DNA of 64,000 bases from an uncultured Acidobacteriota bacterium (GCA_963796275.1 CAWCKY010000001.1:992001-1056000); one strand, 5' to 3'; positions 41,228 through 51,677 are shown, counted from the first letter of the stretch. Notes: generated from the letters alone by a model not told the origin. Made by a program: numbers and translations.

Positions 41228-41242
41228 TGGCCTCTAACTTGC
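41228..41242 (+). promoter_or_regulatory. sigma54 promoter upstream of candidate sRNA
   Basis: TGGCCTCTAACTTGC. Confidence 0.65.
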
Positions 41243-41253
41243 TTATTTAATAC

Positions 41254-41414
41254 GTGAGCGTTATAGGTTCTTGCAACGCACAACGGCATGAATACTGAAC
41301 ATGCAGGGAGCAGTATAAAGGAGCCAGGTGGGGAGCTGGCTCTTTTCGTGCCGAATTCAAAGCTGTCCTGAGTAGAGTTCTTGAAAGGCTACTTTGCTCT
41401 GGGCAGCTTTTTTT
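41254..41414 (+). ncRNA. Candidate sigma54-dependent structured sRNA A
   Basis: Four consecutive hairpins; GAGCCAG-GTGGGGAG-CTGGCTC-TTTT and final AAAGCTGTCC...GGGCAGCTTTTTTT terminator. Confidence 0.55.
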
Positions 41415-41594
41415 GTTCGCAATCCATATCCAGTGTAGCGCCAATCAAACACAATCCATACATATTACCAGTACGAATTAGTTCACATTTTTTCATCCAT
41501 TTGCTACGAAAGCGGTCGCTTTACATCCATTCACAAAGCTAAGTAATCTAGACAGAAGTGTTTAGAGTTGATACCCGGGGATCCGTATTTTTAC

Positions 41595-41609
41595 TGGTAT
41601 GGGCCTTGC
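41595..41609 (+). promoter_or_regulatory. sigma54 promoter for Clp-like ATPase
   Basis: TGGTATGGGCCTTGC, 30 nt before ATG. Confidence 0.7.
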
Positions 41610-41638
41610 AGATTCATTAGATATCTCCCGGAATAAGG

Positions 41639-42796
41639 ATGTCACATATGAAACAGCAATCAGAGATCATGAAGGCAGCAGCTGCTGCCGTGGGTTCAAT
41701 GCAGAATTGGATTCCACTCAACGCCGAAGAGAGGTGCGATGAGGCAGGGGTATTCGAAGAGGGGATATCTTCAAGGATCGTTGCACAGGATGAAGCTATC
41801 CGTGCTATGTCGCAGCTCTATCAACTTTATTTGGCTGATTTGAACATGCCGAACAAACCGATCGGGACGCTCCTCTTCCTGGGTCCTACCGGTTCCGGCA
41901 AAACACGTGTCGTCGAGGCGGCCTCAGAGGTGTTGTTCGACGATCCATATGCGATGGTCAAAATTGACTGTGCCGAGTTTCAACACTCGCACGAAATATC
42001 GAAACTGATCGGCTCGCCGCCCGGATATTTGGGGCATCGTGAAACACATCCGATGTTATCGCAGGAGAACATAGACCGTTTTCAGACGCCAACAAATAAG
42101 CTTACCTTAATTTTATTCGATGAGATAGAGAAGGCGTCCGATGCGCTATGGCAACTCTTGCTTGGCATTCTCGACAAAGCGACGCTCACCCTGGGCGACA
42201 ACAGAAGGGTCGATTTCTCGAACTGCATCATCGTCATGACGTCCAATCTGGGCGCCCGTGAGATGAGCGTTCTGACCGAAGGTCAAATGGGCTTTGCGCC
42301 AACCGAAGCAATTTCCTCGGACCTCGATGCGAGGCTGGTAAAAATCGGAATTGAGGCGGCGCGGCGTAAATTTTCGCCCGAATTCATGAATCGCCTCGAT
42401 AAGATAGTCGTTTTTCAAACCCTAACCCGCGCCGCGATGGAGCGGATTTTGGACCTTGAATTGGATCTTCTGCAACGGAGGATTCTATCGACCGGACGCA
42501 GCGCTTTTATCCTTAAATGTAGCGATGAGGCAAAGGAATTTTTGCTTAAGGAAGGCTTCGATCGCCGCTACGGGGCAAGACCGCTCAAGCGTGCCATTGA
42601 ACGACATATTCTCGTTCCCGTCTCGAATATGATCTCTACCGGACAGCTTTCAACCGGTGACATTATGCTTGTCGATGTCAACGATGTTCGGAAAGGGCTC
42701 TGTTTCGGGAAGGCTTTCCCGTCATTAAGCCTGGATCATTGCGATCAGAGCAGCGGATTTTTCCCCGCACCTCAATTGCAAAGATTGGCTACATAA
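41639..42796 (+). CDS. Stand-alone ClpA/B/C NBD2-like AAA+ ATPase
   Basis: FLGPTGSGKT, LIGSPPGYLG, LFDEIEKA, MTSNLG, FSPEFMNRLD, YGARPLKR; no N-domain or NBD1. Confidence 0.9.
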   Translation: MSHMKQQSEIMKAAAAAVGSMQNWIPLNAEERCDEAGVFEEGISSRIVAQDEAIRAMSQLYQLYLADLNMPNKPIGTLLFLGPTGSGKTRVVEAASEVLFDDPYAMVKIDCAEFQHSHEISKLIGSPPGYLGHRETHPMLSQENIDRFQTPTNKLTLILFDEIEKASDALWQLLLGILDKATLTLGDNRRVDFSNCIIVMTSNLGAREMSVLTEGQMGFAPTEAISSDLDARLVKIGIEAARRKFSPEFMNRLDKIVVFQTLTRAAMERILDLELDLLQRRILSTGRSAFILKCSDEAKEFLLKEGFDRRYGARPLKRAIERHILVPVSNMISTGQLSTGDIMLVDVNDVRKGLCFGKAFPSLSLDHCDQSSGFFPAPQLQRLAT

Positions 42797-43282: not shown

Positions 43283-43297
43283 TGGTCTGAGCTTTGC
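43283..43297 (+). promoter_or_regulatory. sigma54 promoter for the ElaB/holin/DUF3618 operon
   Basis: TGGTCTGAGCTTTGC. Confidence 0.6.
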
Positions 43298-43413
43298 AAG
43301 AAAGGCTAGGGAGACTCATCGCTAAGATTGAAAAAGACCTGGGGGAGAGCGAGTTACACAAAAATGATTTGAGCTACCTCTGGGGATTAAAGGCATTGAG
43401 TTACTAGGAGGAG

Positions 43414-43806
43414 GTGAACATGGATAGGATGGATAGGACGGAATTCAAGTCTAACCGGGAGTACCAGGATAATTTGCATCAGGATGAAGAAGTGTTGAGG
43501 GAGCAGGGTTATATGGCTGGAGGGGGTATGACTTTTGATCGGGTGAAGGCGGCGGTGGCAGATTTTTTATATGAGGCAGCTGAAGTGATCCATCATAAAA
43601 GTTTAGGGACCGGCAGTTCCGAAATATCGAATTTCGGTGACCGTGCCGCTAACTGGTTGGAGCATTCAGCCGGCTATGTGAGGGAGATGGAGCCGCAGCA
43701 GTTAAAGGCGGATTTCGAAGATAAAGTCCGCCGCCATCCGGGGCGGAGCCTCATAATCGCCGGGGTGGTAGGGCTGGTTATAGGCAGCGTGATTCGCAGG
43801 AGGTAA
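43414..43806 (+). CDS. ElaB/YqjD (DUF883)-like tail-anchored protein
   Basis: C-terminal VRRHPGRSLIIAGVVGLVIGSVIRRR; AGGAGG RBS. Confidence 0.75.
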   Translation: MNMDRMDRTEFKSNREYQDNLHQDEEVLREQGYMAGGGMTFDRVKAAVADFLYEAAEVIHHKSLGTGSSEISNFGDRAANWLEHSAGYVREMEPQQLKADFEDKVRRHPGRSLIIAGVVGLVIGSVIRRR

Positions 43807-45155: not shown

Positions 45156-45189
45156 TAACGGTTCAGGAACGAATAAATGATACCGAAAC

Positions 45190-45258
45190 CGTCCCAGTTG
45201 CCCCAGTCGCCCCCATTGTCCTTGTTGTCCCAGTCACCCCGGTCGCCTCGGTCGCCCC
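45190..45258. repeat. Nonamer tandem repeat (GTCGCCCCA-like), intergenic
   Basis: About seven degenerate 9-mers before the kinase RBS. Confidence 0.65.
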
Positions 45259-45284
45259 TTTCCGAGGTTGAAGGAGAAGAATCG

Positions 45285-46934
45285 ATGCCCAAAGAGAAGC
45301 GGACCATTCTCCTCGTCAGTAAAAATAATACGGATCCTCAGCCCTGGCGGGAGTATCTGGAGACCGACGACGCAATCGACTGGTCATTCATCGAGGAAGA
45401 GTCGGCCGCGAAAGCTGCGACGAGCTGTCTGCTGATCAGACCCGATTGTCTTCTGGTCAGCGGAACCCCATCGGGGATCAATGATGTGCTGGCGGCTCTG
45501 CAGGAATCGATAGACCAGATTCCGGTGATCGTGATCACCGATTCGGGCGGGGATGAATCTTTGGGACCAATTGGAAGAGAAGTGGGAGAGTGTCTGAATC
45601 GTGAGGCTGTCTCGTCCGGCGTTCTCCGCCGGACTGTCAGCCGAGCGATAGAGATGACCAGGATGCAGTGTCTGGTTGAACAACAGGCGCGGCAGATCGA
45701 TGAACTCAATCTGCGGTTGGAGACCGAACGGGGCCAGATGATGGAGCGCGAAAGGCGGGCGCGCGATCTGGCCGAAGCGGTCAACCGGGATAAGGATGAA
45801 TTCATTGCGGTCGTCTCACACGAATTGCGAGCCCCCCTCAATGCCATACTCGGTTGGGCGCGCATTCTCAAAATCGGGAAATACAACGCAAAAACATTCG
45901 AGCATGCGGTCGATGTGATCGAACGCAGCGCCCGTACCCAGCAGCGATTGATCGAAGACCTGCTCGACACCGCGCGGGTCATCAGGGGGAAGCTCCGATT
46001 GGAGACCAAACCCGTCGATCTCGCCCGGGTCATCGAGGCTTCCGCCGATTCCGTTCACCCGGCCGTCGAGGCTAAGGGCATAGATTTAAAATTGAAACTG
46101 AAGGGTAAGAACAATGTCATTACGGGTGATGCGGACCGGCTGCAGCAGGTAGTCTGGAATCTGTTATCGAATGCCGTCAAATTCACGCCCGAGGGGGGGC
46201 AGGTAGAGGCTCAACTCGAACGGGCGGACCCTTATTTACAAATTATCGTGAGAGATTCGGGCAAAGGCATCAGCCGCGATTTTCTGCCCTATATCTTCGA
46301 TCGATTTCAGCAGGCCGATCTGGCCAGCAGGCGCCGCCACAGCGGGTTGGGGCTCGGCCTGGCGCTCGTACGGCATCTCGTCGAGCTGCACGGCGGAACA
46401 GTCGAGGCCGATAGCGCGGGTGAAGGGCAAGGATCTACCTTTATTGTGAGGCTCCCGCTTCCGGCTATTCGGCAGCGAGTCGATGAAAAGAAGCAAAGTG
46501 CCCGCGATAAATCGGTTGCCATCAGCTCCTACTCGCTCGACGGCATACGCACGCTGGTGGTGGATGATGATCCGGATGCGCGCGATCTCGTGGCCACCTT
46601 GCTGCGGCAATATGGCGCCCATGTCACTACAGCGGCTTCCGCCTCGGAGGCGCTCGTATGCATAACATCCAGCGATTCATCCAATCGAGCCGAGATTCTG
46701 GTCTCTGACATCGGGATGCCGGAAGAAGATGGATACTCCTTGATCGAGTCGATACGGCGACTCGCCCCCGAAGATGGAGGTTCCATTCCTGCCATCGCGC
46801 TCACCGCGTATGGGCGCGCGAGCGATCGCATCAGGGCGCTTTCAGCGGGTTTCCAAACGCATATGCCGAAACCCGTCGAACCCGCAGAGCTTGTCATGGT
46901 GATATACAGTTTGACGGGCCGCGCCAGTTATTGA
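45285..46934 (+). CDS. Hybrid histidine kinase (degenerate receiver-HisKA-HATPase-receiver)
   Basis: SHELRAPL, NLLSNAVKFT, DSGKG, GLGLGL, VVDDD, SDIGMP, KP; AAGGAG RBS before ATG 45285. Confidence 0.93.
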   Translation: MPKEKRTILLVSKNNTDPQPWREYLETDDAIDWSFIEEESAAKAATSCLLIRPDCLLVSGTPSGINDVLAALQESIDQIPVIVITDSGGDESLGPIGREVGECLNREAVSSGVLRRTVSRAIEMTRMQCLVEQQARQIDELNLRLETERGQMMERERRARDLAEAVNRDKDEFIAVVSHELRAPLNAILGWARILKIGKYNAKTFEHAVDVIERSARTQQRLIEDLLDTARVIRGKLRLETKPVDLARVIEASADSVHPAVEAKGIDLKLKLKGKNNVITGDADRLQQVVWNLLSNAVKFTPEGGQVEAQLERADPYLQIIVRDSGKGISRDFLPYIFDRFQQADLASRRRHSGLGLGLALVRHLVELHGGTVEADSAGEGQGSTFIVRLPLPAIRQRVDEKKQSARDKSVAISSYSLDGIRTLVVDDDPDARDLVATLLRQYGAHVTTAASASEALVCITSSDSSNRAEILVSDIGMPEEDGYSLIESIRRLAPEDGGSIPAIALTAYGRASDRIRALSAGFQTHMPKPVEPAELVMVIYSLTGRASY

Positions 46935-47033
46935 TTGCTTTAGGCGTATTGAATGTTCAGAAACAAATTTCCGGAATCCGCAATCTATGCGCATCCGTCA
47001 ATAAACAGTCCGCAATCAAGAAAGAGGGAAGTC

Positions 47034-48635
47034 ATGAACAGAGCAAAGGTGCTTGTTATCGACGATGATCCTGAAATGCTCGATCTGACCCAGTATGAGC
47101 TGCAGACCCGTGGTTATGAGGTGATTACGGCGAAGAATGGCGAGGAAGGGTTGAAAATTATTGGCGAACACGGCGTCGACGTCGCGCTCACGGACCTCCA
47201 GCTTCCTGATATTCACGGAATTGAACTGGTCGGGATGTTGAAGGAGATTTCGCCGCGCACGGAAATAATCATGGTGACCGGCTACAGCTCGCTCAACGAT
47301 GCTATCGGCGCGATCAAGGCCGGCGCATTTTATTTCATCGAAAAGCCGGTCGAATTCGAGGAACTGTCTCTCCTGCTCGAGAAGGCTATCGAACGCGGCA
47401 GCCAGGCCGAGGAGATCAAGAACCTGCTGGGACGATTGAGCGAGCGAACCTCGTATTACAATCTGATCGGCAGCAGCAAGGCCATGCAGGATATCTATGA
47501 GATTATCGAAGGCGTCGCCGAATCGGACGCCAACATAATGATCTTCGGCGAATCGGGGACCGGCAAGGAGTTGATCGCAAATGCTATCCATTATAAGAGT
47601 CTGCGCGCCAAGAAACCGTTCGTTAAGATCAACTGCTCGGCGCTGCCGAAAGAGCTGATCGAGTCGGAGCTATTCGGTCATACCAAAGGCGCATTCACCG
47701 GCGCGGCGACCGAGAAGACCGGATTGATCGGGCAGGCGAAGGGGGGCAGCCTCTTGCTTGATGAGATCGGTGAGATGCCCGTTGAATTGCAGCCCAAGCT
47801 TCTGCGCGTACTGCAAGAGCGCGTCTACTATCGGTTAGGGAGTGAAAAAGCGCTCGAAGCCGACTTCCGGTTGATCTCGTCGACCAATCGCGATCCGCTG
47901 GTGGCGATCCGCGATGGGCATTTGCGTGAAGACCTTTACTACCGCATCAACACCATCGAAATTCACGTACCGCCTCTGCGCGACCGCGCGGAAGATATCC
48001 AGCATCTGGCCGAATATTTCCTGAAAATATATGCTGAAAAGTACCATCGCCAGGTGCACTCGATATCACAGCACGTCTATGAACGAATGTTCGAGTATTC
48101 TTGGCCCGGCAACGTGCGCGAGCTGCAGAATGTCATCGAGCGTGCGGTCCTACTCAGCAAGGGAGATATGATCGAAGAGAGCATCCTGCCCACGGCTATC
48201 TCGGTACAGCCGGAGGCAGCCAGTGTCCCGGTGCCGGAATCATCACTGCCTGCGACCGGCAGCAAATCTGAAGCAGGGGTGTCAAATGCACAGGATTTGA
48301 CGCTGGAGCAGATGGCCTGGTTGATAGTTAACCGAATCCCGGATTCGAAGGACGGGAGGCATCGAACCGACACGATCAAACAGTTTGAAGGCGCCATCGT
48401 CAACGCCGCTCTCGAGCGCACGAGAGGCAACAAGCAGGCGGCTGCCAACCTGCTCGGCCTCTACCGCCCCCGCCTTTACACGCTGCTGAGAAAACACAAC
48501 CTGGGCAAGACGATCCGTGAAGTCGACCGGTCTATCACAGATGCCGAGCTGGAAGAACAAGAAATGGCTGAGATGGATTCTCACGCTATGGTAGATAATG
48601 GGCTTACTCACACGATGCGTTCGGCGGGAGACTGA
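47034..48635 (+). CDS. NtrC-family sigma54-dependent response regulator
   Basis: Receiver (VIDDD, TDLQLP), GESGTGKE, GAFTGA, WPGNVREL, Fis-type HTH GNKQAAANLLGL. Confidence 0.96.
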   Translation: MNRAKVLVIDDDPEMLDLTQYELQTRGYEVITAKNGEEGLKIIGEHGVDVALTDLQLPDIHGIELVGMLKEISPRTEIIMVTGYSSLNDAIGAIKAGAFYFIEKPVEFEELSLLLEKAIERGSQAEEIKNLLGRLSERTSYYNLIGSSKAMQDIYEIIEGVAESDANIMIFGESGTGKELIANAIHYKSLRAKKPFVKINCSALPKELIESELFGHTKGAFTGAATEKTGLIGQAKGGSLLLDEIGEMPVELQPKLLRVLQERVYYRLGSEKALEADFRLISSTNRDPLVAIRDGHLREDLYYRINTIEIHVPPLRDRAEDIQHLAEYFLKIYAEKYHRQVHSISQHVYERMFEYSWPGNVRELQNVIERAVLLSKGDMIEESILPTAISVQPEAASVPVPESSLPATGSKSEAGVSNAQDLTLEQMAWLIVNRIPDSKDGRHRTDTIKQFEGAIVNAALERTRGNKQAAANLLGLYRPRLYTLLRKHNLGKTIREVDRSITDAELEEQEMAEMDSHAMVDNGLTHTMRSAGD

Positions 48636-48667
48636 ACTAACTTGAAGAGGGAAGGGAATATGAGTGT

Positions 48668-48889
48668 ATGAACAAGGAAAGAAAAGATGACCCGAAGCCT
48701 AAACCTCCACCCGCCCCCCAACTGCCCAACCTCCCATGGAGCCCTGACGATCCTTTCCAACTGGATCCGGAGCGAAAAGAGCCAGTTACTACAAGTCTGC
48801 CAGAAACAGAAAAAGAAAATGATGGGGCAACGCCGCCGGCGCGACCAAAACGCGAGAGACGAGAAAATGAAGAAAGTAATGAGCAATAA
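48668..48889 (+). CDS. Small Pro/Glu-rich hypothetical protein
   Basis: 73-aa ORF with purine-rich RBS directly after the regulator; no motif. Confidence 0.35.
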   Translation: MNKERKDDPKPKPPPAPQLPNLPWSPDDPFQLDPERKEPVTTSLPETEKENDGATPPARPKRERRENEESNEQ

Positions 48890-49052
48890 CTATAATAGAA
48901 CACACACAGGTATTTTTTTAGTACATAGACATGACTTTCTTCAATCCATTTTAGTTATTATGTACACATAAAATTCCTATTTCTCGCATCGAAATATCTC
49001 CAAGCATACAGAATATAACAAGTTGAGTATTTTAGAAAAATCGCAATGTTAA

Positions 49053-49067
49053 TGGCATTGAGGTTGC
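49053..49067 (+). promoter_or_regulatory. sigma54 promoter upstream of candidate sRNA B
   Basis: TGGCATTGAGGTTGC; GGTA-N9-TACA box at 48909-48925; IHF-like TCAACTTGTTA (minus strand) at ~49016-49026. Confidence 0.75.
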
Positions 49068-49078
49068 TAGGCAGTTGA

Positions 49079-49220
49079 TGACCATTTTAACGAATGGTCA
49101 GCTCAAGTACAGGCGAGGGACTTTCGGGGGAGTGAGTTCCTCGCCGTCATGAGTTGGGATGGCTGCTTGCGAATAGCTGTCACACGAGGGAAAGCTATTC
49201 TCAAGCAGCCATTTCTTTTG
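49079..49220 (+). ncRNA. Candidate sigma54-dependent structured sRNA B
   Basis: Three strong hairpins starting at the predicted +1: TGACCATT/AATGGTCA; GGCGAGGGACT/AGTTCCTCGCC; ATGGCTGCTTG.GAATAGCT/AGCTATTC.CAAGCAGCCAT followed by a T-tract. Confidence 0.7.
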
Positions 49221-49357
49221 ACATCGATACCGAACAGCGCCGGAGGTTAGTCAAACTTATGCTTGGCAGCCATAAGTTACCTTCTGGCGCTCGTCCTAGC
49301 TATTCTGGCGATACCAAGGCGTATTTCCTCTACCTTGTCGTGGTATCGATGTATGAA

Positions 49358-49876
49358 TTATCGAACTGTCGTATACTCGCGCGTATAGACCGGCCGGAGG
49401 TCTCTCTCCTCAACAACCACCTCAGTCAGCGATAGTGACCGAACACCTATTTGGAGTCCCTCATTGAGTTGTTGAATCAAGATGACCCGTCCATTATTGA
49501 ACCGGAGCGCGTCTCGGTAGACGTACGGCTTATCAGTTATCTGAGTGAAGGTAGCTTCCTCTCTTTCGTTTAGGCCGTGCTCTTTCTGAAGACGCGCCGG
49601 GATGCCCTGAACATCCAGCCGTGCACCCGGCGGAATACAGACCGCGGGCAGCGCTCTCTCGATCTGTCCGTTGGCTGATTCCATCCCACGATCCATCCAC
49701 GTTTTGAATCTCATCCATAAACTGGATTCCGCTGTGACCTGATATTGTTTCTTTATCTTATCGAGGTCAGTCGGCGATGCCAGCCCTTTCGAACCAGAGA
49801 GGAATCTGTGGACGAAAAGCGTTTCGCCTTCAACGGCCAGACGGTTTTTAAAGCTATGCAATGAATAGTCGCACAT
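49358..49876 (-). CDS. Conserved hypothetical protein (MCDYSL family)
   Basis: AGGAGG RBS; MCDYSLH..RLA..GE.L, AVCIPPGA, F.NG...L..L.EG pattern. Confidence 0.8.
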   Translation of the reverse strand: MCDYSLHSFKNRLAVEGETLFVHRFLSGSKGLASPTDLDKIKKQYQVTAESSLWMRFKTWMDRGMESANGQIERALPAVCIPPGARLDVQGIPARLQKEHGLNEREEATFTQITDKPYVYRDALRFNNGRVILIQQLNEGLQIGVRSLSLTEVVVEERDLRPVYTREYTTVR

Positions 49877-50241
49877 ATTCTACCTCCTAAATATCCTGGG
49901 CGATGCCCTGCTTGAATGACGATTACTGAATCTACTCTCTTTACTGCTTCTTCGTTGAGTATTAAGTCTTCAACAGTTTATCCGGTCGTCTTCTATTATT
50001 CCGGGTTCATACCAGGCGATTCGAATGGGAGGATTTCAACATAGCCTTACCCGGTAATCATTTCGTTTTGGAGGATTCTTTTTCTTAGCTGAAACCGCTT
50101 GCTGTAAGTTTACCTCATTTCTATGGGTTTGAGAACCGAATAGAGGCATACAGCTAATTTTCGTGGAATATCATTGATATGAGATTGCTTTTCTATAGTT
50201 TAAAGAGGGACCGAGCATCACAATGTCGCGCACCTTCGCAA

Positions 50242-50333
50242 CGCGGCGGCCCGAGACGACTGCTTTCTCCTGAATTTCTGTGAAAGTTGTATAACAGAAA
50301 TTCAGGAGAAAGCGGTCGTCTCGGGCCGCCGCG
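50242..50333. repeat. Near-perfect 40-bp inverted repeat (12-nt loop)
   Basis: Arms 50242-50281 and 50294-50333 with one T/G mismatch. Confidence 0.9.
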
Positions 50334-50412
50334 CTCGAGCGTCTCACTATTCATCTATTCATTTCATAAGGGTAATAAGAAGCAATTTGATTTTTCCTCT
50401 GCTCCCCACCAC

Positions 50413-51603
50413 TCACCGTCTCGTAGCACTGTTGCGAGGCGAGCTGGATCGAACAGTTATTTCCGTTCCGCTCGGGAGATCGAGGTTATCGCGGCCTTGG
50501 ATCAGAACAGTCCCGGCGCCTGCGCCGGCCCCAACCGCGGCTCCGATGGCAGCGCCCGATCCGCCACTGGCTACTGCGCCGATTATCGCGCCGAGGGCCG
50601 CTCCGATGCCTGATCGTGTGATCGTGCGGGTCGATTGACTGTCGTCATCCTTAATAGTGCCTTCACTCTCTATCTTGACCTCTTTCCCGTCAGGCGTGCG
50701 GATGTTTTCGAGTGTGCCTCTGAAATCGTATGTGCTGCCGTCGCGCATCCGAATGCGGTCGAAATTGAGCGTCAGCTCTGCGCTCCCGGTTACACGTCCC
50801 GAACTCTCGATGTTGGAAACGATTCCTTCAATCACGGCACCTCTGTATTGGGAAGGCGATCGCACCTCCATGCTGAAACGATTCGTGGAACTGTCTTCCT
50901 TCGTGGACAGGTTTGTGGTCAGAACGGCTGTAAGCCTGGTGTTATTGGGCACGATAAATCGCCCTTGAACCGGTCGATTGGGGCCGTTGTTATCACGCGG
51001 ACCCGTATAGAGATTCAATTGCGCGATGTCGGACGTCTTTTCATATAGGCTCGTGACGACTATCGGCTGGGAGAAGCGTTCCGCATAAATGCTGCGCGTG
51101 ATCCGCATCCGCTGGCCTCTCTCGGTCGGGTCGAATGTAACGTTGTAATCGCTGCCCTGTGAGCCGGTCCTGTTGACGATCAACTGGTCGCCATTGAGTG
51201 ATGCTTTGATGCGCACCGTCCGCCCACGTTCCGTTGTCTCCGTACGAGTCCGCCCGTCCGCGTCGAAGGTGGTTTTCGGCGCACGTGTGGAGGCCATCGT
51301 GAAGCGGCGTCCGCTCTGCTCAATTGCGATCACATCCGGAGCATCAAGTCTTCGCGTAACGCGCTCGCGCGCCCGTTGTTGCTCGCCCGACGGCAATCCG
51401 CGGATTGCCCGCTCAACTATATCGTCCGCGTTGTCGCTGCGTGAAACATCAAGCCGCCATGTCCCCGTCAATTGGCCGGGATTCCGTTGAGAACGCCGTT
51501 GATTTGCTTGCTGTGCGCTCACGGAAGTATCAGCCTGCACAAGCAGCATTAACAGAAGCGCAAGCATCATGAAATAGTTGATGAATTTTATTTTTACTGA
51601 CAT
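50413..51603 (-). CDS. Secreted protein with C-terminal glycine zipper (YMGG-like)
   Basis: Signal peptide; GIGAALGAIIGAVASGGSGAAIGAAVGAGAG; LPSGTEI. Confidence 0.85.
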   Translation of the reverse strand: MSVKIKFINYFMMLALLLMLLVQADTSVSAQQANQRRSQRNPGQLTGTWRLDVSRSDNADDIVERAIRGLPSGEQQRARERVTRRLDAPDVIAIEQSGRRFTMASTRAPKTTFDADGRTRTETTERGRTVRIKASLNGDQLIVNRTGSQGSDYNVTFDPTERGQRMRITRSIYAERFSQPIVVTSLYEKTSDIAQLNLYTGPRDNNGPNRPVQGRFIVPNNTRLTAVLTTNLSTKEDSSTNRFSMEVRSPSQYRGAVIEGIVSNIESSGRVTGSAELTLNFDRIRMRDGSTYDFRGTLENIRTPDGKEVKIESEGTIKDDDSQSTRTITRSGIGAALGAIIGAVASGGSGAAIGAAVGAGAGAGTVLIQGRDNLDLPSGTEITVRSSSPRNSATRR

Positions 51604-51662
51604 TTTCTGGCCCCTCTCTGTTTTGAAATAACCAATCTACAAGCTACATCTTCTAATTGTCA

Positions 51663-51677
51663 GCAAGAATAGTGCCA
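51663..51677 (-). promoter_or_regulatory. sigma54 promoter for glycine-zipper gene
   Basis: TGGCACTATTCTTGC, near-consensus. Confidence 0.8.

Follow-up and report, generated by a model that had tools for sequence, protein, structure and literature searches.

A predicted family of structured RNAs with G-rich loops and sigma54-type promoters in an acidobacterial family

Introduction

In Pseudomonas, the CbrA/CbrB two-component system is accompanied by CrcZ, an RNA of about 400 nt whose A-rich motifs bind Hfq/Crc and which works as a decoy. In Vibrio, LuxO is accompanied by Qrr1-5, Hfq-dependent base-pairing RNAs whose seed is a long, single-stranded conserved stretch, and which show that sigma54 sRNAs may exist in multiple copies. 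CsrB, RsmY and RsmZ are transcribed from GacA/UvrY promoters of the sigma70 type, and in the NasR-controlled nasF leader of Klebsiella the ANTAR targets are paired hexaloop hairpins overlapping the terminator. Acidobacteria are an abundant and poorly studied soil phylum in which, to our knowledge, almost no regulatory RNA has been characterised, and full-text searching of the literature turned up no paper on a sigma54-dependent sRNA in Acidobacteriota or Blastocatellia.

Here, we describe a predicted RNA gene in a 64,000-nucleotide stretch of acidobacterial DNA (the window). As in CrcZ/CbrAB, the sRNA gene directly follows genes for an NtrC-type activator and a kinase, has a sigma54 promoter and carries a repeated short unpaired motif, but the RNA is only about 140–180 nt long, its loops are G-rich, it has no Rfam match to CrcZ, it belongs to another phylum and its adjacency to the activator is found in one genus only. 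Like the Qrr RNAs, the family consists of multi-copy, apparently sigma54-dependent sRNAs of about 100–180 nt with stem-loops and a terminator, in which one copy adjoins an activator gene and a conserved region is common to the copies; its conserved elements, however, are short G-tracts in apical loops, and no Rfam Qrr model matches. Repeated GGA hairpin loops resembling ribosome-binding sites and several paralogues per genome recall CsrB, RsmY and RsmZ, whereas most carriers here lack CsrA, the motif is GGGGAG and not ANGGA, the promoter is of the sigma54 type and Rfam again gives no match. Members linked to DUF4383 or DUF1800 genes resemble nasF in having a sigma54 promoter, a structured leader and an intrinsic terminator before genes, but the loops here are G-rich and 8–12 nt long, no alternative pairing is seen and the window copy has no downstream gene. 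With Rfam matches absent and the test for a Csr partner failed, the RNA belongs to none of the systems compared.

Results

An RNA gene predicted behind a sigma54-type promoter

The window RNA, hereafter copy B, and the gene that it faces are laid out as follows.

49053-49068, + strand: sigma54-type -24/-12 promoter TGGCATTGAGGTTGCT; TGG..A and TTGC are invariant in 5 orthologues, the flanks vary
49079-49100, + strand: hairpin P1, 9 bp, loop TTAA/TTAACG, beginning at the predicted +1
49101-49154, + strand: hairpin P2/P2b, arms 49112-49122/49135-49145, G-rich apical loop TTCGGGGGAGTG at 49123-49134
49159-49212, + strand: hairpin P3, the intrinsic terminator stem, arms 49159-49181/49190-49212
49212-49219, + strand: U-tract TTTCTTTT, predicted 3′ end
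49358-49876, - strand: convergent 172-aa gene, no Pfam match, relatives in 8 of 24 other family genomes

The 64-kb window contains the promoter form TGGCA-N6-TTGCW twice where 0.22 occurrences are expected, and 3 of 100 shuffles reach two. Since the C of the -12 GC sits at 49067, transcription is predicted to start at about 49078-49081, and this is where P1 begins. On the + strand, the interval 49076-49225 folds with a minimum free energy of -76.0 kcal/mol compared with -41.7 ± 3.5 kcal/mol for 200 shuffles (z -9.71, none as good), and the reverse strand gives a weaker fold (-62.4, z -8.8). The 23-nt arms of P3 are 91% complementary and enclose the core loop ACACGAGG (49182-49189); the CACACGAGGGAA reported earlier is this same loop with less of the stem closed. 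A GC-rich stem followed by a U-tract, that is, an intrinsic terminator, is thus present on the RNA's own strand and conserved throughout the family, where ATTTCTTTT-like tails follow P3. It does not figure in the list of a simple terminator scan limited to loops of 3–8 nt and 20 counted pairs.

As to coding content, a 93-aa ORF starting with TTG (49154-49435) overlaps the RNA and has no match in a Pfam search. A small ORF inside the RNA (ATG at 49149; AUG/GUG frame) was also considered and rejected, as by our reading of the alignment the frame is not kept open in homologues. The conserved convergent gene lies 140 nt downstream, and because it is convergent the window RNA has no co-directional gene to lead into. 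Searched as a possible partner of the RNA, its 172-aa product matched only uncharacterised acidobacterial clusters and gave a weak Hsp20 lead (at 0.77); its relatives lie 5–7.5 kb from the RNA in three genomes of genera g5/g6. The preliminary description of this DNA had read in it a near-consensus sigma54 promoter placing +1 at the first hairpin, three stems with purine-rich loops and a terminal T-tract, a species of about 140 nt, no credible ORF and a convergent next gene, and all of these readings hold, the predicted transcript 49079-49219 having just that length from promoter to U-tract.

Conservation and covariation across one bacterial family

A blastn search against 60 relatives gave four partial matches of about 71% identity, in which the promoter hexamers and the loops (GGGGGAGT; GGGGAGGG) are kept, the stems differ by compensating changes and an extra hairpin, P2a, is inserted in P2. 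This side hairpin is present in most relatives and missing from the P2 of the window copy. Across 5 orthologues, GGGGGAGT, AGTTCC and CCGTC.TGAGT in the P2/P2b region are unchanged. Of 87 genomes in this bacterial family, 47 were hit by a covariance model built from the four matches (R1), and a second model (R2), built from 35 hits, placed the RNA in 72 (46/55 of those of high quality) and in 13 of 17 genera, with 1–5 copies per genome and roughly 130 hits altogether; the negative genera under R2 are g8 (0/9), g9 (0/2), g11 (0/2) and g17 (0/1). Outside the family, R2 detected it in a single one of 112 other genomes of the class sample and in none of 149 in the phylum sample. Apart from that single genome, the RNA is confined to one acidobacterial family (Acidobacteriota/Blastocatellia), probably Pyrinomonadaceae. 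One genome flagged as unpublished (G004, locus L040) contributes one row to the alignments, R2 and the counts and one genome to the tallies; the conclusions are independent of it.

In the alignment of 35 sequences, which was fitted to the model and in which P2a was left unpaired, 92.7% of the cells are paired and two-sided, compensatory change is seen in 44 of 48 pairs: 6/8 in helix 1 (P1), 18/19 in helices 2-4 (P2/P2b) and 20/21 in helix 5 (P3). The covariation score is 0.517, against 0.207 for column shuffles, none of 500 of which reaches it, and at most 0.115 for slid partners. Collecting homologues and looking for covariation, the check proposed in the preliminary description, has therefore come out in favour of the RNA. 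Many pairs switch between A-U and G-U (e.g. 15/12, 21/6), and this fixes the + strand, because frequent G-U pairs would be A-C on the opposite one. Taken with these data, 49079-49219 (+) is very probably a real RNA gene.

The layout common to the family is P1, then P2 closing a junction with P2a and P2b, then the P3 terminator and the U-tail. A UGGGGAG/GGGGGA motif recurs in 2–3 apical loops per RNA across subfamilies; the individual G-loops read GGGGGAG, GAGGGAA, UGGGGAG or GGGGGA, each with a GGA, and the P3 loop of the window copy fits the motif poorly. Promoters were surveyed at 45 loci with full-length hits, with 20,000 random 90-nt windows of the same loci as control. The strict form TGG[CT]A-N6-[TA]TGC is found within 80 nt upstream at 33 of 45 loci (1.2% of random windows), and the relaxed GGY-N8-TGC upstream at 41 of 45 (6.8%). 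Transcription of the window RNA is thus highly likely to be sigma54-dependent. The four loci with neither form (L028, L029, L030 and L053) make up one subgroup of genus g2, which is without the P2b hairpin and shares another conserved sequence upstream. Tandem arrays of 2–3 RNA copies about 500–700 nt apart are seen in genera g12 and g16 (G013:C309:21576-22859; G017:C379:16661-17439; G028:C305:6-672; G067:C354:2817-3552; G103:C185:27266-28157; G093:C356:10399-11271).

The RNA is new to Rfam. With Rfam 15 and a cutoff of E ≤ 10, cmscan found no more in 47000-51000 than miRNA-precursor noise on P3, below the threshold (27.5 bits versus 51), 12 homologous loci had no match on the RNA at E ≤ 0.1, and the Qrr, CrcZ, GlmY/GlmZ, Pxr, CsrB, RsmY/Z and Acido-type motifs did not match the window RNA, in agreement with the earlier statement that it belongs to no recognised family. 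In two genomes of genus g15, a cobalamin riboswitch (90–92 bits) lies divergent from the RNA and about 290 nt from it (L031 961-1189 (+); L033 1950-2164 (+)).

Five copies in the genome and a sigma54 island around two of them

R2 finds five copies (A–E) in this genome, the four besides B being diverged paralogues that the model alone detects. Copies C, D and E are close relatives located on contigs C7, C6 and C1 behind TGGTACGGTC[AC]TTGCA. Copy A lies in the window, 7.8 kb upstream of B, and has G-rich P2a and P2b loops; it scores 28.7 bits with R1 (E 2.8e-6) and 46 bits with R2 (E 2.1e-7; 41262-41421). A comparable two-copy arrangement is seen in congener G002, whose second copy is 11 kb from the B copy on one contig. 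Within a span of 10.5 kb the window has five sigma54-like promoters, and together the genes behind them form an island composed of RNAs A and B and the ClpB-like AAA, DUF883-like/holin-X/DUF3618 and Gly-zipper genes. Besides the promoter of B, the relevant features are these.

41228-41243, + strand: sigma54-like promoter of paralogue A, TGGCCTCTAACTTGCT
41251-41421, + strand: paralogue A, loops CAGGGAG and GGUGGGGAGC, terminator and U7
41595-41610, + strand: sigma54-like promoter before the ClpB-like AAA gene 41639-42796
43283-43298, + strand: sigma54-like promoter before the DUF883-like/holin-X/DUF3618 operon, 43414 onward
48918-48925, + strand: candidate upstream activator site TTAGTACA, about 135 bp before the -24 element
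48960-48967, + strand: ATGTACAC, a motif related to TTAGTACA
51662-51677, - strand: sigma54-like promoter before the 396-aa Gly-zipper gene 50413-51603 (-)

The TTAGTACA motif (7-mer TAGTACA) stands upstream of three of the five island promoters, at -127 for copy A and -135 for B. The 7-mer occurs 152 times on the two strands of the 9.46-Mb genome, and at loosely defined sigma54-like sites genome-wide it was observed 9 times against 7.9 expected; it is thus not enriched there and would be at best local to the island, and its reading as an activator site, made post hoc, is suggestive only. By alignment reading, other genera, too, keep GTAT-N9-GTACA-like blocks before their orthologous RNA. In L013/L018 (g6, g5), a conserved non-coding block of about 70 bp lies 100–200 bp before the promoter of the B-type RNA and contains GCGTAT, GTACAC, GATACAGC, TGCATT and TTCATTCA and, at some loci, the dyad GCTGT-N8-ACAGC; it is partly recognisable upstream of the window copy, and a divergent BON/YtxH-domain gene lies upstream of the RNA at these two loci. 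The leader of the DUF883-like operon (43296-43425) has G-motifs as well, though outside loops (z -2.4). A near-perfect 90-nt hairpin at 50243-50332, directly after the 396-aa gene (-), scores a spurious 51 bits against a miRNA model and is probably the terminator of that gene on the - strand. Altogether, a conserved sigma54 stress island that includes the RNA is supported.

The adjacent two-component system

Two genes upstream of copy B encode a candidate regulator and its partner.

45177-46934, + strand: hybrid histidine kinase (HisKA, HATPase_c, REC), the activator's partner
46953-48635, + strand: NtrC-type sigma54 activator (REC, Sigma54_activat, AAA lid, HTH_8), candidate regulator

The order kinase, activator, RNA is found here and in one congeneric record (L072/L017) only, both of genus g1; in the latter the activator is 75–78% identical and the RNA begins 434 nt after it. 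Within 1.5 kb of the copy in congener G001 there is no activator, and the RNA is missing from 16 loci that encode more distantly related activators. In genera g5/g6, the best activator orthologue (70–74% identity) is separated from the B-type RNA by 4.4, 4.9, 12.4 and 12.6 kb in four genomes and by 90 kb in a fifth, and these genomes have 15–40 activator paralogues each (E ≤ 1e-60). The preliminary description had proposed a novel sRNA as output of the adjacent two-component system. The non-coding RNA gene itself stands: it is structured and new to Rfam, its sigma54-type promoter is conserved and it ends in an intrinsic terminator. The output part is left as a possibility, the adjacency being limited to those two records. 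For the window RNA itself, control by the adjacent activator is plausible, the case being about evenly balanced.

Genes downstream of family members

Downstream genes were surveyed at 44 loci, after exclusion of L026, which is cut by a contig end. A DUF1800 gene follows directly on the same strand at 15 of them, starting about 80–290 nt past the RNA, and a DUF4383 gene at 10, starting 24–63 nt past it; Pfam confirmed DUF1800 in 13 loci and DUF4383 in 2. Neither gene follows at the other 19, both window copies included, and copy E of this genome precedes DUF1800. In all 13 DUF1800 loci examined for it, L058 (G000:C1:735983-739158) among them, a conserved two-box motif with fixed spacer, (A/G)(A/G)CCAA - 17 nt - (C)NTCTAA(G), lies between the terminator and DUF1800; going by the consensus, we take it to be an ECF-sigma-type promoter, from which DUF1800 is probably transcribed independently. 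DUF4383, on the other hand, must be reached by read-through, because 24–63 nt leaves no room for a promoter. A pairing between the 5′ strands of P2 and P3 (CUCAGG/CCUGAG) was considered as an antiterminator and rejected, since in the alignment it occurs in the B-type subfamily only. In the accessible portion of the literature on DUF1800 and DUF1501, only unrelated papers were found.

Searches for partners of the G-rich loops

Between -150 and +60 of 4180 SD-supported starts, no peak is seen for CTCCCC, for permutations of it or for longer words, whereas the positive control GGAGG peaks as expected, with 1151 occurrences in the -15 to -1 bin; the start-codon sets come from a crude ORF picker. 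When six loop seeds were scanned for duplexes with 6994 start regions, the nominal outliers were the 5′ region of an AprA-like methyltransferase, an enoyl-CoA hydratase and a TonB-receptor-like gene. The top duplex, and the only hit on a start codon, joins a P2a loop to the start codon of the TonB-receptor-like gene (-28.1 kcal/mol). This target was rejected, as the pairing is not conserved in the 73–81% identical orthologues of the sRNA carriers G029, G019 and G003. Hits of this class are in any case uninformative, because the genome (G000) has at least 150 CarboxypepD_reg/TonB-receptor-like genes (from 323 candidates).

A scan of unannotated DNA for a partner RNA with a C-rich loop returned 153 candidates and no family, except for one two-copy hairpin. 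Its copies (G000:C4:1151394-1151513 and 1154119-1154224) are long and 90% identical, have no further copies in the genome and carry a CU-rich loop, UUCUCCCCUCCUCU, complementary to the G-loop motif. That the loops mimic a Shine-Dalgarno sequence for the CCUCC anti-Shine-Dalgarno tail was rejected by reasoning: the invariant leading G's would pair with the tail through wobble only, so such mimicry does not explain their conservation.

Discussion

Is the element an RNA at all, and if so, does it act on its own? The preliminary description had named two ways in which the hairpins might mislead, as dispersed REP copies or as the mere terminator of the convergent gene. P3 is indeed near-palindromic and in several loci matches the model on the reverse strand too, and the reverse strand of the hairpin region likewise folds well. 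Both readings are nonetheless ruled out as far as the data go, and together they are left with a negligible probability: a blastn search of the 9.46-Mb genome with the element returns the element itself and no near-identical copy elsewhere, the other four copies being diverged paralogues; when the - strand is read, CCCAACTC and no U-tract comes after the hairpin; and what is conserved over 13 genera is the full three-hairpin RNA, covarying as a whole and not in P3 alone, with its promoter and its strand-specific G-U pairs. A more serious question is whether the family serves mainly in cis, as a 5′ leader or attenuator in which sigma54 promoter, sensor fold and terminator precede a gene, and the window copy is an orphaned, degenerating leader with no function of its own. 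A cis role has to be considered for the family, because 25 of 44 loci stand directly upstream of DUF1800 or DUF4383, copy E of this very genome among them, and this fits a leader for much of the family; the short distance to DUF4383 points the same way, as do the missing P2a and the weakest P3 loop motif of the window copy. Set against this are the 19 loci with neither gene, among them both window copies, the convergent gene that copy B faces, the probable promoter of DUF1800 itself (13 loci) and a P3 stem of at least 20 bp with no conserved alternative, antiterminator pairing. Decay of the window copy is further disfavoured because its congener orthologue is conserved with compensatory changes. 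As an account of copy B, the leader reading is accordingly unlikely. Since some members stand alone as genes and others precede genes of two families, we conclude that the RNA family has a double use, and the window copy probably, though by no means surely, belongs to the stand-alone, trans-acting kind.

How would such an RNA act? A short G-tract motif that recurs, between variable flanks, in separate apical loops and from paralogue to paralogue makes a multivalent site for a protein or ligand likelier than one long seed, and for the window copy a decoy is our tentative choice, with base pairing nearly as likely. In the latter case, the G-rich loops of an Hfq-type sRNA would be seeds for pyrimidine-rich, CUCCCC-like sites, and one possible effect is that anti-SD hairpins in target mRNAs are opened and translation or stability altered. 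Hfq is encoded in this genome, the RNA has the stable, U-tailed terminator usual for Hfq partners, loop sequences are kept beyond structural need (e.g. GUGUUGGGGGA in several genera) and the Qrr RNAs offer a multi-copy sigma54 precedent; but CUCCCC-like words do not peak near start codons, and purine-rich ribosome binding sites cannot pair with G-rich seeds, and base pairing is rather doubtful. The GGA in every G-loop, displayed on hairpins several times per RNA, would also suit a Csr/Rsm-type sponge that sequesters CsrA, a protein present in 21 of 87 family genomes. However, CsrA (PF02599) was not found when this genome, 94.7% complete, was searched in six frames, and it is missing from 66 of the 87 family genomes while the RNA is in 72; in g5 the RNA is in 8/8 genomes and CsrA in 0/8, in g12 in 22/22 and 0/22. 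CsrB, RsmY and RsmZ have no Rfam match either. Because CsrA is absent here and from most carriers, we regard a CsrA sponge as out, or very nearly so. One specific version of the decoy, somewhat unlikely as it stands, would give the G-loop RNAs the part of decoys in a post-transcriptional switch that resembles Csr but operates in the absence of CsrA; in it, a protein of these Acidobacteria would bind GGGGAG-type, Shine-Dalgarno-like hairpin loops of mRNAs.

In our preferred reading, copy B is an sRNA of a stress island that depends on sigma54, stands alone, acts in trans and may serve as a G-loop decoy; put together, these parts have somewhat less than an even chance of all being right. In it, the sigma54 holoenzyme would start a structured RNA of about 140 nt at the 49053-49068 promoter, and a long GC-rich hairpin and U-tract would end it. 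The adjacent NtrC-type activator and hybrid kinase may switch on the window copy, and the ClpB-like, DUF883/holin-X/DUF3618 and Gly-zipper genes and paralogue A would be switched on together with it. The terminated RNA would act in trans, its multivalent G-rich, Shine-Dalgarno-like loops possibly titrating a motif-binding factor other than CsrA. Should the Csr-like switch be true, up to five paralogous RNAs made in sigma54 bursts would titrate the G-loop protein under stress or nutrient limitation, and the copies before DUF1800 and DUF4383 would bring those operons under the same recognition in cis.

The RNA family is undescribed so far and combines clear covariation, a defined promoter type, 1–5 copies per genome and a sharp taxonomic boundary. 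With DUF1800 and DUF4383, it has two recurrent gene partners of unknown function, and it offers a testable regulatory module. Most of these bacteria lack CsrA, and the G-rich loops may point to a new RNA-binding partner in them; the family also provides a way into the sigma54 regulons of organisms that encode enhancer-binding proteins by the dozen.
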